From assembly GCF_054482525.1 (NCBI RefSeq), contig NZ_CM137006.1: a stretch of DNA of 64,000 nucleotides. One strand, 5' to 3'. This document shows positions 11,105-22,836 of the stretch, one piece after another (position 1 is the stretch's first letter; every line of letters begins with the position of its first letter). A program made the position numbers and the translations under genes. The notes under the pieces were generated by a model. The model searched no databases, was not told where the DNA came from, and worked only from the letters and a program-made list of their open reading frames with translations.

Positions 11105-13627
11105 TTAATTACTACCAAACATATCCTTGATCCAACCGGCTACACCGTCGCTGTCTTTCTGCTCTTGCTGAGCAGGTTGCTGTTGCGGCGGCTGAGAAGA
11201 CTGATCAAACGGATTGCCTGACGGTTGCTGCTGCATCTCACTCTGCTGGCACAGCGATTGCGGATCGCTGGTCCAGACCGGCAAGACACGCATACCACCG
11301 CTGCAAACAAAGTTGCCGTCGTAGTCCACGCCCATATCTGCAATATCTTCTGGCGGAACAAGATTTAGCGGCGTTGGCGTCTGGTTAGCCAGATAACGCT
11401 GATAAATCGACATTGCCCCGCTGGCTCCATACAGTTTGGTCGGTTGGTTGTTATCACGGCCTACCCAGGTGATGGTCACCGTGCTGCCGTCAATGCCCGC
11501 AAACCAGGTATCTACGTTATTGTTGGTAGTCCCTGTTTTCCCTGCCAGATGCAGGTTCGGGTATTTCGCCCCAAGCTGACGACCCGTACCACGTTGTACC
11601 ACCTGCTGCATGGTCCATAGTGTCAGATATGCCGCCTGCGCCGGAACAGCGCGTTCTGCCTGCGGGAAGCTCTGATACAGCACCTTGCCATCTTCTGCGA
11701 TGACTGAACGCAGCGCAGAAAGCGGTGCACGGTTACCACCGCTGGCGATGGTCTGGAATGCCTGCGCCACTTCGATTGGCGTTAAGTTCAACGCCCCCAG
11801 CAGCATTGCCGGAACCGGATGCAGCTGATCTTTCGGTACGCCCAGTTTGATCCAGGTCTCCGTAACCGCAGGCAGCCCCAGCGCCATCCCCAGATTTACC
11901 GTCGGCACGTTCATCGAACGGGTCAACGCATCCACCAACATCACTCTGCCGCTTTCGCTATAACGACGGTCATCGTTCTGCGGTGACCAGACCTGGCCAT
12001 TTGGCTGACGCAGCGCGATTGGCGCATCCGCAATCCACGTATTCAGACGATAGATTTTCGGCTGGCTTAAAGCCGTCAGATAAGTCGCTGGTTTTGCAAG
12101 GGAACCAATCGAACGACGCGCCTGCATCGCACGGTTGTAGCCCGCAAACTGCGGCTCAGAACCACCGACCATCGCACGAACTTCACCGCTAAAGCGGTCA
12201 ACAACCACAATCGCGGTTTCAAGATCGCTCAACTTACGCTGTTTCTTCAGTGCCGGAATGCCTTCCACGGCGGCTTTTTCTGCCGCGTCCTGGGCCACCG
12301 AGTCAAAGGTAGTGAAGATCTTCACGCCGGAGAGATCTTTTACCTTATCGCCCAGTTTTGCCTGCAGCTCCTGACGCACCAGTTGCATAAAGGCTGGCTG
12401 TGGAGAGATCACCCCACCGCGCGGCTGAACCCCCAGCGGACGTGCACTCAACATGTCATAGAGTTCTTGATCAATAATCTGTTGCTGTTGCAGCAGACGC
12501 AGTACCAGATTACGTCGCTCCAGCGCCAGTTTCGGGTTACGCCACGGATTGTAGATGGACGCCCCTTTCACCATACCCACCAACAGCGCCTGCTGGTCGA
12601 GGCTCAATTCTTCTACTGGGCGACCAAAGTAATACAAGCTCGCCAGCGGGAAGCCGCGGATTTCGTTGTCGCCGCTCTGACCGAGATACACCTCGTTCAT
12701 ATACAGCTCAAGAATACGGTCTTTGCTGTAACGCGCGTCCATGATCAGCGCCATGTAAGCTTCGTTCGCTTTACGCCAGTAAGAGCGCTCGCTGGAGAGG
12801 AACAGGTTTTTCACCAGCTGTTGCGTCAGCGTACTCGCACCCTGCACCGTGCGTCCGGCGGTCAGGTTTGCCAGCACCGCACGTCCGATGGAGTAGAGAC
12901 TGATCCCATCATGCTCGTAGAAATGGCGGTCTTCTGTCGCCAGCAAAGTATCCACCAGCAAATCAGGGAAACCACTGCGCGGCACAAACAGACGTTGCTC
13001 ACCGTTTGGCGAGGAGATCATGGTGATCAGGCGCGGATCAAGACGGAAGAAACCAAACTGACGGTTGTTCTCCATATTGACGATGGTCGCCAGATGATCG
13101 CCATCAAAGGTCAGACGCGCACGCACCTGCCCTTCTTTACTGTCCGGGAAATCAAACGGACGGCGGATCATCTCAATGCTGTTGGCCTGCACGGTAAATT
13201 CGCCGGGACGGGTCATTTTCGACACCTGACGATACTGTGTTGCCTCCAGCAGCTTCACCATCTCGTTCTTGCTGATGGTCATGTCTGGCTCAAGGTTGAC
13301 CATTCGGCCATAAACTGCCGCGGGCAATTGCCAGACCTTGCCATCAATACGGCTGCGAATTTTTTGATCGAGATAAACGCCGTAAATGGCGATCAGCACG
13401 GCAAAAACGATAGCCAGTTTTAGCAGCAGCCATAGCCAGCCGCGTTTGCCACGAGGCTTACGCCCTTTGCCTTTGCCCTTACCTTTGCGCGGCATCGGTT
13501 CTTCATCCTCATAGTCATCATAATCGTCGTAATCGTCATCTTCGTAACGACGACGGCTTACCTTTTGTTTGACCGGACGCGTCGGTTTCCCTTTGCGTCC
13601 AATTGGCTCGCGGTCATTCCCGGCCAT
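11105..13627 (-). CDS. mrcB: Bifunctional penicillin-binding protein 1b (transglycosylase/transpeptidase)
   Basis: ORF 11105..13642 trimmed to [14 protein letters not shown]...; acidic D/Y tract, KG repeats, TM segment and Q-rich C-terminus typical of PBP1b. Confidence 0.95.
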
Positions 13628-13720
13628 GCTTTTTCTCCGCAATATTCAGGCGCAAAAGCCCGATTTTCTGTTCTTCTGTTGCAAGACAGAAGAAGATATC
13701 TCTCAAATTTGCTTTGGTCT

Positions 13721-16150
13721 TCACGAATACTTTTTCGTCCGTCGCGTCGGTGCAGTATTTGCCGGGTCGTCCGGCCAGACATGTTTGGGATAACGCCCTT
13801 TCATCTCCTTTTGCACCTCACGATACGCCCCTTTCCAGAAGGCCCCCAAATCACGCGTGATTTGCAGCGGCCTTTGGGCGGGTGAAAGCAACTCCAGCAC
13901 CAGCGGCACGCGCCCCTGAGCGATCGTCGGATTGGTGGCCTCACCAAACATCTCCTGCATTCTCACCGCCAGCGCGGGCGGATTATCTTCATGATAACGA
14001 ATGGCGATCCGGCTTCCCGTCGGCACAGTGTAATGCGCAGGCAATTCACTATCCAGACGTTGCTGCATTCCCCAATCAAGTAATCCGCGTAGTGCCTGAT
14101 AAATGTCGAGTGATTTCAGGCCGCGTAGTGAATGTACGCCAGTCATATGTGGCAGCAGCCACGTTTCCAGCGCCGCCAATAAACTTTCATCATCAACCGC
14201 TGGCCAGTCATATTCCGGCAACCACTTTGCGGCGCATAACAAACGCAAGCGTAGCTGTTCCGCTTCCGCCGTCCAGTTGAGCACGCTTAAACCTTTATCA
14301 CGAATGCCGTTAAGCATCGCCTGATGCAACTCGTCTTCCGAGGGTTTCGCCAGTGGCTGCACTTTCACCGTCAACTGACCGATTTGCAGCCGACGCCAGG
14401 CTTTCAGCGTGCCTTGCGCGTCATCCCATTCCACGGTGTCAGACTGCTGTACCAGCTGCGGACAGCGTTGTACTAACTCATCAATATCGACCGGTAGCGC
14501 CAGTAAAATCCGTGCATCCGGCGAGGCGCTGCCCTGCAATAATAACGGTGCGATCAACCATTCGTGGCGGCTTAGCGCATCGTCGGCATCGAGCATCGCC
14601 CCCATGCCGTTTGCCAGTTGATAGCGTCCATCTTGCCCACGGCGACGAGCAATGCGATCGGCATACGCCCCGGCAAGTAGCGGCGCGATAAGAGAACTGT
14701 CTGCCTCACCGCCGCGTACGTTTAAACGTTTTAACAGTTGCTGACTACGTTGCTGCCAGGCTGGTTGATTGCGCGAAAACGCCACGCCCAGGTCACTATT
14801 GCCCATCCGTGGCGGCTCTTCGAGAATGGCGGCAATTTTTGCCGCGGTAGCAGCTTCGTCGTCGTTCTTCGCGCTAACCAGCATTGCCGCTAAACGCGGA
14901 TCGTTACCCAGCGCTGCCATTTTTTGCCCTTGCGCACTAAGCCGTTCACCGTCCAGCGCCCCCAGCATCCGTAACATGCGTTTCGCGGCCAGTAGATTCA
15001 CCGTTGGCGGTTGATCCAGCCAGCTCATCTGCGCCGGATCGCTGCATCCCCATTGCAGTAATTCCATCAGCAAACCGGAAAGATCGCTTTGTAATATCTC
15101 CGGTTCACTTTGCGCGGCAGCGCGTTCTGCTTGTTCTTTGGCGATTAAATGCAGGCAGATACCCGGCTCCAGACGCCCGGCGCGCCCGGCACGCTGCGTC
15201 ATGGATGCCTGACTAACGCGTTGAGTAATCAGTCGCGTAAGCCCCGTGCGCGGATCAAAGCGCGCCACCCTTTCCTGAGCACAATCCACCACCAGACGAA
15301 TACCTTCAATGGTTAAACTGGTTTCAGCAATATTGGTCGCCAGCACCACTTTGCGCATTCCTTGCGGTGCCGGAAGGATCGCTTTTCGCTGATCGTTCAG
15401 CGACAACGCGCCATACAGCGGGCAGAGCAACACATCACTGCCGATGCGCGAAGCCAGTTGTTCCTGCACGCGCTGAATTTCTCCGACGCCAGGTAAAAAT
15501 AACAGTAATGATCCACTTTCCTGACGCAGCATTTCGGCGGTGGCTACCGCAACGGCTTCGTCAAAACGCTGATGCGCGGGCAGCGGTAAATAACGGCGTT
15601 CAACCGGAAACGAGCGCCCTTCTGAGATGACGACGGGCGCTTCTGGCAGCATTTGCTGCAAGCTGTCGTTGTCCAGCGTAGCCGACATAATCAGCAGTTT
15701 AAGGTCATCACGCAGACCTTGTTGCACATCGAGTAACAGCGCCAACGCCAAATCCGCCTGCAAGCTGCGCTCATGAAACTCATCGAGGATCACCAATCCA
15801 ACACCGCTCAGTTCCGGGTCACGCTGGATCATGCGCGTCAGCACGCCTTCGGTAACCACTTCCAGGCGGGTATTCGGCCCGACGCGGTTTTGCGCACGCA
15901 TCCGGTAGCCAACGGTATCGCCTGGCTTTTCGTTAAGCAGCTCCGCCAGTCGTTGCGCAACGTTACGCGCCGCCAAACGACGCGGCTCCAACAGGATAAT
16001 TTTCCCGTTAATGCCGGGATGCGCCAGCAGTTGCAGCGGCAGCCAGGTTGATTTCCCGGCCCCGGTCGGCGCACTTAATAACACCTGCGATGCACAATCG
16101 AGAGCGGTAAGTAATTCAGGTAAGACGGCAGCAACGGGCAACGACGACAC
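13721..16150 (-). CDS. hrpB: ATP-dependent RNA helicase HrpB (DEAH-box)
   Basis: ORF 13721..16195; Walker A GAGKST and DEFHERS motifs. Start placed at GTG (VSSLPVAAV...) to give 809 aa; the ATG at 16195 is the alternative. Confidence 0.88.
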   Translation of the reverse strand: MSSLPVAAVLPELLTALDCASQVLLSAPTGAGKSTWLPLQLLAHPGINGKIILLEPRRLAARNVAQRLAELLNEKPGDTVGYRMRAQNRVGPNTRLEVVTEGVLTRMIQRDPELSGVGLVILDEFHERSLQADLALALLLDVQQGLRDDLKLLIMSATLDNDSLQQMLPEAPVVISEGRSFPVERRYLPLPAHQRFDEAVAVATAEMLRQESGSLLLFLPGVGEIQRVQEQLASRIGSDVLLCPLYGALSLNDQRKAILPAPQGMRKVVLATNIAETSLTIEGIRLVVDCAQERVARFDPRTGLTRLITQRVSQASMTQRAGRAGRLEPGICLHLIAKEQAERAAAQSEPEILQSDLSGLLMELLQWGCSDPAQMSWLDQPPTVNLLAAKRMLRMLGALDGERLSAQGQKMAALGNDPRLAAMLVSAKNDDEAATAAKIAAILEEPPRMGNSDLGVAFSRNQPAWQQRSQQLLKRLNVRGGEADSSLIAPLLAGAYADRIARRRGQDGRYQLANGMGAMLDADDALSRHEWLIAPLLLQGSASPDARILLALPVDIDELVQRCPQLVQQSDTVEWDDAQGTLKAWRRLQIGQLTVKVQPLAKPSEDELHQAMLNGIRDKGLSVLNWTAEAEQLRLRLLCAAKWLPEYDWPAVDDESLLAALETWLLPHMTGVHSLRGLKSLDIYQALRGLLDWGMQQRLDSELPAHYTVPTGSRIAIRYHEDNPPALAVRMQEMFGEATNPTIAQGRVPLVLELLSPAQRPLQITRDLGAFWKGAYREVQKEMKGRYPKHVWPDDPANTAPTRRTKKYS

Positions 16151-16223
16151 AAAACGCTCCAGAGGGTTAACATTCTTCGCGGCACATTGTAGCATCGCGG
16201 TAATTCATAACCGAGTGCCTCAC

Positions 16224-22061: not shown

Positions 22062-22802
22062 ATGTTTTTTAATACAAAACATACTGTAGCATTATGCTTT
22101 GCAACCTGTTTAGCTTTTAGCTCTTCAGCTATTGCAGATATCGTCATTTCAGGTACACGCGTTATTTACACAAGCGATCAAAAAAGTGTCAATGTACGTC
22201 TGGAAAATAAAGGCAATAACCCATTGCTGGTCCAGAGTTGGTTAGATACCGGAGATGATAACGCCGAACCTGGCAGTATCAATGTCCCATTTACGGCGAC
22301 TCCCCCTGTTTCACGTATTGACGGCAAACGCGGTCAAACAATCAAGCTGATGTATACCGGCAGTTCTGCTTTACCCAAAGATCGGGAAAGTGTGTTTTGG
22401 TTCAATGTCCTCGAAGTTCCACCAAAACCCGACGCGGAAAAAATGGCTAACCAAAGCATGTTGCAACTGGCCTTCCGTACTCGCATCAAACTGTTTTATC
22501 GTCCGGAAGGACTCACCGGAATACCTTCCGATGCTCCGGCTGCACTGAAGTGGTCGTGGACAACATCCGGCGGCAAAGTGGCGCTTCGTGTCGTTAATCC
22601 TACCCCCTTCTACGTCTCTTTCAGCAGTGGTGACGTTGTCGCCAGCGGAAAACGTTATCCGTTAGACGTCAAAATGATCGCGCCACGCAGTGAAGATGCC
22701 ATCACAGTTAATGGGATCAGTAGCAAAGTGAGTTCTGCACAAGTTCACTTCTTTGCCATTAATGATTTTGGCGGCGCAATTGAAGGCAATGCCACTCTGT
22801 AA
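22062..22802 (+). CDS. yadV: Periplasmic fimbrial chaperone (PapD-like)
   Basis: 246-aa ORF with signal peptide, recognised as a PapD-fold pilus chaperone (also known as EcpD). Confidence 0.88.
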   Translation: MFFNTKHTVALCFATCLAFSSSAIADIVISGTRVIYTSDQKSVNVRLENKGNNPLLVQSWLDTGDDNAEPGSINVPFTATPPVSRIDGKRGQTIKLMYTGSSALPKDRESVFWFNVLEVPPKPDAEKMANQSMLQLAFRTRIKLFYRPEGLTGIPSDAPAALKWSWTTSGGKVALRVVNPTPFYVSFSSGDVVASGKRYPLDVKMIAPRSEDAITVNGISSKVSSAQVHFFAINDFGGAIEGNATL

Positions 22803-22836
22803 AGTCTTCAGGATCACACGCAGCAGGAAGCAAAAC

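Follow-up and report, generated by a model that had tools for sequence, protein, structure and literature searches.

The closest described counterpart of the gene considered here is mrcB of Escherichia coli K-12, which encodes PBP1b (MrcB/PonB, b0149, NP_414691.1), forms part of the hrpB-mrcB-fhuACDB locus and is annotated in MG1655 at NC_000913.3 164730..167264 (2535 nt, 844 aa). In the alpha isoform, an extended cytoplasmic N-terminus brings PBP1b to the division site, probably via FtsA binding; the first 14 residues are conserved, R6 being critical and R6, P8, I9, G10 and R11 implicated, the gamma isoform starts at Met46, and the N-terminal region is intrinsically disordered (PMC13423804, 2026). 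A second counterpart is MrcB of PCN033 (WP_000918204.1), a porcine ExPEC strain of phylogroup D and serogroup O11 (PMC4578781).

The stretch of DNA analysed here (the window; 64,000 nucleotides) matches the PCN033 chromosome at 99.98-99.99% identity; 8 SNPs and a single-base indel separate the two, all outside mrcB, and the mrcB genes are 100% identical, with no difference between the MrcB proteins. The minus-strand open reading frame at 11105..13642 holds the canonical start (MAGND...) at position 13627, which places the mrcB (ponB) coding sequence for PBP1b alpha, with its 840 codons plus stop, at 11105..13627. Mechanical extension of the frame reaches a TTG five codons upstream of the canonical ATG and yields 845 aa; the K-12 and PCN033 annotations share the same ATG. 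As in both of those annotations, the gene lies between hrpB, whose reading frame at 13721..16195 adjoins it, and fhuA, and an Rfam scan of the 64-kb window returned no match in or near mrcB.

The domain order is likewise that of the K-12 protein. Pfam matches comprise PBP1_TM (PF14812; cytoplasmic tail and single TM helix) at residues 1-78, scoring 87 bits (cut-off 27.8), the LpoB-docking UB2H domain (PF14814) at residues 112-196 (E 1.7e-25), the GT51 Transgly domain (PF00912) at residues 208-378 and the transpeptidase domain (PF00905) at residues 472-713. A hydrophobic stretch inside the PBP1_TM match marks the approximate TM helix, estimated to span residues ~63-86 (13370..13441, minus strand). 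In the protein alignment, the catalytic Glu (E232, in TEDRHF) and the SxxK serine (S509-L-A-K512) are both invariant relative to K-12. Because the product is near-identical to K-12 PBP1b, with a single substitution outside the tracts discussed below, PBP1b of the window, an intact and ordinary protein, is expected to function as the K-12 enzyme does, with glycosyltransferase, transpeptidase and penicillin-binding activities.

Differences from the K-12 protein are few, and length is foremost among them. The initial annotation had counted 840 aa from the canonical Met and given 844 aa for K-12 PBP1b, and both figures are correct, the former by translation of the reading frame and the latter by the NC_000913.3 annotation. 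It had tentatively attributed the shortfall to one 12-bp indel in a low-complexity tract of the interval 13457-13548, which corresponds to residues ~27-57 and holds the acidic D/Y tract, the gamma-start Met and the KGKGKGKG tract. Pairwise alignment with reference mrcB, which is not 840 codons long, does show the window to be shorter by a net 12 bp (4 aa), but in protein and DNA alignments alike the loss takes the form of two separate in-frame indels. The first (-3 bp) falls within the flagged acidic tract, where one GAT (Asp) is absent and DDDD becomes DDD (13532..13535, minus strand; GAT-GAC-GAT-GAT minus one GAT, with placement ambiguous within the GATGAT repeat). The second (-9 bp) lies some 2.3 kb outside the flagged interval, in the C-terminal Gln/Pro tract (junction 11189..11190, minus strand), where QPQQQPQQQP becomes QPPQQQP, that is, QQQ fewer; the K-12 codons CAG CCG CAG CAA CAG CCG CAA CAG CAA CCT correspond to CAG CCG CCG CAA CAG CAA CCT in the window. 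The KGKGKGKG tract does not differ from K-12. A single 12-bp indel in the D/Y or KG tract would suit the net difference, as well as the altered length of the acidic tract, but with only 3 bp missing from that tract, none from the KG tract and 9 bp from the distant Q/P tract, it is ruled out by the alignments and retains practically no probability.

Beyond the two indels, the sole protein difference is I782V (K-12 numbering; V781 in the window), and the nucleotide differences from K-12 across mrcB, about 61, are silent or near-silent. Comparisons with the K-12 literature need to allow for an offset of -1 past the acidic tract (E233 becoming E232, S510 becoming S509 and Met46 becoming Met45) and of -4 past the Q/P tract.

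The four-residue shortfall is, very probably, ordinary allelic variation, produced by two independent in-frame slippage-type indels in low-complexity, putatively disordered linkers. On the compositional level, the tracts are real outliers: when local entropy was compared with 2000 shuffles of the PBP1b protein, the acidic D/E/Y tract (residues 28-43; 13499..13546, minus strand), at 1.50 bits the lowest-entropy 16-residue segment in the protein, was matched by 0 of the 2000 shuffles, the KG tract (residues 48-55; 13463..13486, minus strand) by 11 and the C-terminal Gln/Pro tract (residues 812-823; 11159..11194, minus strand) by 7. The earlier description of the N-terminal tracts as encoded by short DNA repeats applies only loosely. 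The KG tract, a 6-nt repeat of K-12 length (AAAGGN x4), is detected by TRF as a period-6 array of 4.2 copies with 78% matches, and the acidic tract, a degenerate 9-nt codon repeat, appears in a repeat search as a period-9/12 family of 71-83% identity; the DNA-level repeat is interrupted because synonymous codons alternate (GAT/GAC, TAT/TAC, AAA/AAG, GGT/GGC/GGG). Furthermore, since PDB constructs of PBP1b cover only query residues 52/54/57-803, the acidic and Q/P tracts lie outside every solved structure, the latter beyond residue 803, the last in any construct. The extreme C-terminus that follows (residues 826-840, 15 residues; 11108..11152, minus strand) is unchanged, being identical to K-12 and nearly invariant in Enterobacter homologues; a literature search on the function of the PBP1b C-terminal tail returned nothing relevant.

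The same tracts vary throughout the species. Across 5,426 complete E. coli genomes, annotated mrcB is 100% identical over its whole length to that of the window in only three, namely PCN033, SCU-102 and 19KM1776, the next best match reaching 98.9%. Counts for individual tract alleles are approximate, having been read from identity bands in BLAST searches with queries of 88-91 nt. For the window's 91-nt acidic-tract segment, 151 genomes give an exact match, and 13 exactly match another sequence version of the short acidic allele, while the short acidic tract overall is carried by about 164-194 genomes (~194 align without the 3-nt gap), the remaining ~5,230 having the K-12 length. At the other end of the gene, the C-terminal tract is 9-12 bp shorter than in K-12 in 760 of the 5,422 genomes that match this region (14%). 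The common -9 allele, QPQQQQP, is exact in 162 and 571 genomes on two SNP backgrounds and the -12 allele, QPQQQP, in 28; the window's own QPPQQQP allele occurs in only 3 of the 5,422. The combination of QPPQQQP with DDD is rare (3 genomes), whereas each kind of change is widespread and already known.

Further lengths occur in individual strains and annotations. Strain PAR carries a +6 allele (QPQQQPQQQQQP), ETEC6335 has lost one Gln codon (-3) further upstream in the C-terminal region, and CFS3292, which has no SNPs relative to K-12 mrcB, lacks a 9-bp DYD unit. Annotated lengths of 840, 841, 843, 844 and 846 aa were encountered, and the same two tracts vary, in other combinations, in products of 841 aa (e.g., WP_000918160.1, WP_021546716.1), 843 aa (WP_020233397.1) and 846 aa (WP_064238370.1, the length found in PAR). 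Equal length does not imply the same allele, as the other 840-aa product (WP_116319268.1, WP_097246648.1) combines DDDD with QPQQQP, and the window DDD with QPPQQQP.

These counts bear on whether the shortfall could be a sequencing or assembly artefact, or a matter of start-codon choice. Low-complexity repeats are error-prone, a single-base indel does separate the window from the PCN033 RefSeq sequence elsewhere, and the upstream TTG that gives 845 aa is used as a start by some gene callers (P0039). Both changes nevertheless involve whole codons and keep the frame, three independently assembled genomes contain the identical gene, exact copies of the short acidic tract and short C-terminal tracts recur in the 151 and ~760 genomes noted above, and the canonical ATG is common to the reference annotations, which together make such an origin very improbable.

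In an alignment of 14 alleles, gap blocks are confined to columns 94-105, 2404-2406 and 2437-2453, all three in low-complexity tracts, and the ~2,300 nt between the tracts that encode the catalytic domains are free of gaps. Every indel encountered (3, 9, 9, 12, 3 and +6 nt) has a size that is a multiple of 3. The KG tract showed no length difference in the 15 E. coli alleles inspected, no frameshifting length was found in those 15 alleles or among the listed match lengths of the sampled genomes, and mrcB is annotated as an intact CDS in 15 of the 15 genomes checked. Short tandem codon repeats in the 5' part of a gene, beside an alternative start, might be read as contingency (phase-variable) repeats whose frequent length changes turn PBP1b on or off or exchange one isoform for the other. 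Unlike those of a phase-variable contingency locus, however, the repeats here are short and imperfect (no more than 4 degenerate units), all inspected alleles are in frame and intact, and tract lengths are stable within lineages, as the 571, 162 and 151 exact copies attest; high-frequency switching is almost certainly not what these tracts do. The closer parallel is codon-repeat polymorphism in disordered linkers, with which the mrcB variation shares its confinement to tracts, sizes in multiples of 3, short direct repeats at most junctions, recurrence and conserved flanks, and from which it departs in that the window's own 9-bp change is not a clean one-step derivative of the K-12 sequence.

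Most junctions would fit replication slippage between short direct repeats, which are present as GATGAT at the -3 allele, CAGCCGCA at 12-nt spacing at the -12 allele, GCAACAGC at 9-nt spacing at the common -9 allele and CAACAG at the +6 allele. As the window's own -9 junction shows only 2 nt of microhomology relative to K-12, it departs from a classical single slippage event on the K-12 sequence, and two steps probably led to it. The window Q/P allele equals the -12 allele plus one CCG triplet, and a single A-to-C change separates it from the common -9 allele as well. The most economical route to QPPQQQP would accordingly be the -12 allele followed by duplication of CCG; alternatively, the common -9 allele may have undergone a CAG to CCG substitution. 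Mutation rates are probably modest, the repeats being short and degenerate.

The closest relative, CFSAN061763, differs by 21 SNPs, one of them after nt 1782, and carries DDDD with the -12 allele; the next closest, strain 7/2, differs by ~35 SNPs, is identical over the first 464 nt and carries DDD with the full-length C-terminal tract, so that the window's two indels do not co-segregate in these strains. Moreover, indels of the same type are found on gene backgrounds separated by 63-105 SNPs, which points to recurrence, recombination or both. The SNP distribution is compatible with a recombination breakpoint joining a '7/2-like' 5' end to a 'CFSAN061763-like' 3' end, in numbers too small to decide the matter.

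Variation in the tracts extends beyond the genus. In a search of 5.8 billion proteins, every Escherichia sequence is merged into a single 90% cluster, and the nearest representatives outside Escherichia include both DDD and DDDD; a 91%-identical homologue (P0002) has DDD. Enterobacter homologues at 89-90% identity retain the N-terminal tip, an acidic D/E/Y tract, PMPRKGKG, the gamma-start Met and a C-terminal motif ending in [GS]N, with an acidic tract that varies by -2 and +2, a KG tract of 3 or 4 units and a Q/P tract that is the most variable of all. Such a pattern, in which end motifs are conserved and the spacers connecting them vary in length, is expected of flexible linkers, which suggests that the tracts act as such.

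Codons 1-14, the conserved tip of the alpha tail with its predicted role in FtsA binding (13586..13627, minus strand; PMC13423804), are identical to K-12, as are residues 1-27 as a whole and the gamma Met, with R6, P8, I9, G10 and R11 all unchanged. The gamma start, annotated in K-12 as PBP-1Bgamma at codon 46, corresponds to the ATG of Met45 at 13493..13495 (minus strand), and a GAGGA motif within the acidic-tract codons, 10 nt upstream of this ATG, is a putative ribosome-binding motif that may serve as its Shine-Dalgarno sequence. An in-frame internal ATG some 45 codons below the first start, with a ribosome-binding-like motif ahead of it, agrees with the alpha/gamma dual-isoform arrangement, and translation of gamma is predicted on that basis. 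Because the 3-bp indel lies ~30 nt upstream of GAGGA, the spacing between motif and ATG is unchanged.

Whether the 3-bp indel alters mRNA structure at the gamma start was considered as well. Folding of the region around the start in both acidic-tract alleles (91 and 94 nt), evaluated against shuffles, gave energies of -18.6 and -20.0 kcal/mol (z -0.76 and -1.05), weak values that do not differ from shuffled sequence, and the gamma AUG and GAGGA are predicted to be unpaired in both alleles. Given the low z-scores and the unpaired start region, an effect of the indel on this structure is unsupported.

These observations weigh on the idea that tract lengths are adaptive tuning knobs for the reach of FtsA binding, the alpha:gamma translation ratio or the reach of the C-terminal motif. 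The idea gains from the need for the alpha-specific tail in division-site recruitment (PMC13423804), from the position of the gamma start and the putative GAGGA in or beside acidic-tract codons, from the persistence of the tracts as tracts from E. coli to Enterobacter, and from a linker-length 'ruler' effect reported for the envelope protein Pal (PMC12826056). Yet only one residue of 16 has changed, at a distance that preserves the motif-to-ATG spacing, predicted RNA structure is weak with the gamma start open in both alleles, the residues with assigned function lie at positions 1-14 and are untouched (PMC13423804), and many lengths coexist in one species with no obvious pattern; adaptive tuning is quite unlikely. 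As a function is known for the alpha-specific tail (PMC13423804), variation in the acidic spacer's length and charge could conceivably tune, in a quantitative way, the FtsA recruitment by which the alpha isoform would fortify the division site, or shift the alpha:gamma ratio, and the Q/P spacer could comparably set the reach of the C-terminal motif, a proposition that we hold to be quite improbable. If it were true, lineage-specific mrcB alleles (e.g., that of this phylogroup D ExPEC strain) would carry small effects on osmotic robustness or beta-lactam tolerance.

Altogether, ordinary allelic variation offers the best account of the locus. Where the indels lie, how frequent they are in the population and that catalytic domains and flanking motifs are conserved is shown by the data, whereas we infer the slippage mechanism, the neutrality of the alleles and the spacer role of the tracts. 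The first indel removes one Asp from the putative acidic spacer of the alpha-specific cytoplasmic tail, on one side of which lies the conserved tip predicted to bind FtsA (residues 1-14) and on the other the basic KG segment close to the membrane, and the second shortens a putative periplasmic Gln/Pro spacer ahead of the conserved 15-residue C-terminal motif. Such spacers would tolerate small changes in length, and alleles would for that reason arise repeatedly by slippage (at GATGAT, CAGCCGCA, GCAACAGC, CAACAG and CCG), persist and be shuffled by recombination, with selection removing only frameshifts.

For the biology of PBP1b, the length variants are almost certainly harmless natural variation, and the 840-aa protein is to be read as a natural allele, neither a truncation nor an error, to which little biological weight attaches. 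The 844 aa of K-12 should not be taken as the length of the species, as about one in six complete genomes differs from it. Given the part of the alpha-specific tail in bringing PBP1b to the division site, the natural spacer lengths catalogued here, including DDD and DDDD, loss of the DYD unit and several Q/P lengths, are useful for dissecting the linkers, for which they supply ready-made, tolerated variants.

The stretch of the PCN033 chromosome (porcine ExPEC E. coli) at approximately 120.2–184.2 kb, running from guaC to the btuF/mtnN side, is the counterpart of window 1-64000, with 8 SNPs and a lone single-base indel between the window and the PCN033 record; the source of the window is therefore PCN033 itself or a strain very closely related to it, for example SCU-102 or 19KM1776. 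Relative to the PCN033 RefSeq chromosome, one additional C is present in CCACCGGG at window 23604, by which the gene for the yad-fimbrial outer-membrane usher is broken into two overlapping plus-strand ORFs (22753..23610, 285 aa, and 23582..25438, 618 aa), whereas in PCN033 the same gene is annotated as intact, at 2649 nt. The split usher represents either a real frameshift pseudogene, whether in the isolate or in this assembly version, or a sequencing error.

Elsewhere in the window, aceF contains internal direct repeats (approximately 51882-52750) of about 300 nt with about 80% identity; they are the already known tandem lipoyl domains carried by the E2 subunit of pyruvate dehydrogenase. The aroP–pdhR intergenic region carries the sRNA family tp2 (RF02030; 55446-55559, plus strand; 103 bits), the only Rfam match to reach the gathering threshold across the 64-kb window.

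At the extreme C-terminus of PBP1b, the mrcB product, the 15 residues at aa 826-840 (window 11108-11152, minus strand) show no variation among E. coli alleles and are nearly invariant in Enterobacter, unlike the Q/P tract immediately upstream, which is hypervariable. These residues are included in no crystallised PBP1b construct, and no function for them was found in the literature searched. In the search of E. coli genomes, three of approximately 5,424 mrcB matches fell on plasmid-labelled records and two genomes gave no mrcB match at all, cases that probably reflect mislabelled replicons or assembly issues.

The gene adjoining mrcB, fhuA, encodes the receptor for phages T1, T5 and phi80, and in two sampled genomes it is annotated as a pseudogene, frameshifted in ETEC6335 (locus L007, 2956-5198) and interrupted by an internal stop in PAR (locus L014, 2966-5209). 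In the urinary isolate WGS1363 (mrcB-region locus L004, 3072-5291), compared with the corresponding loci L002 and L003 (2951-5194), a fimbrial operon encoding a fimbrial protein, a chaperone and an usher lies downstream of mrcB in place of fhuA. This replacement makes the mrcB–fhuA junction, in some lineages, an insertion point for an accessory fimbrial cluster.
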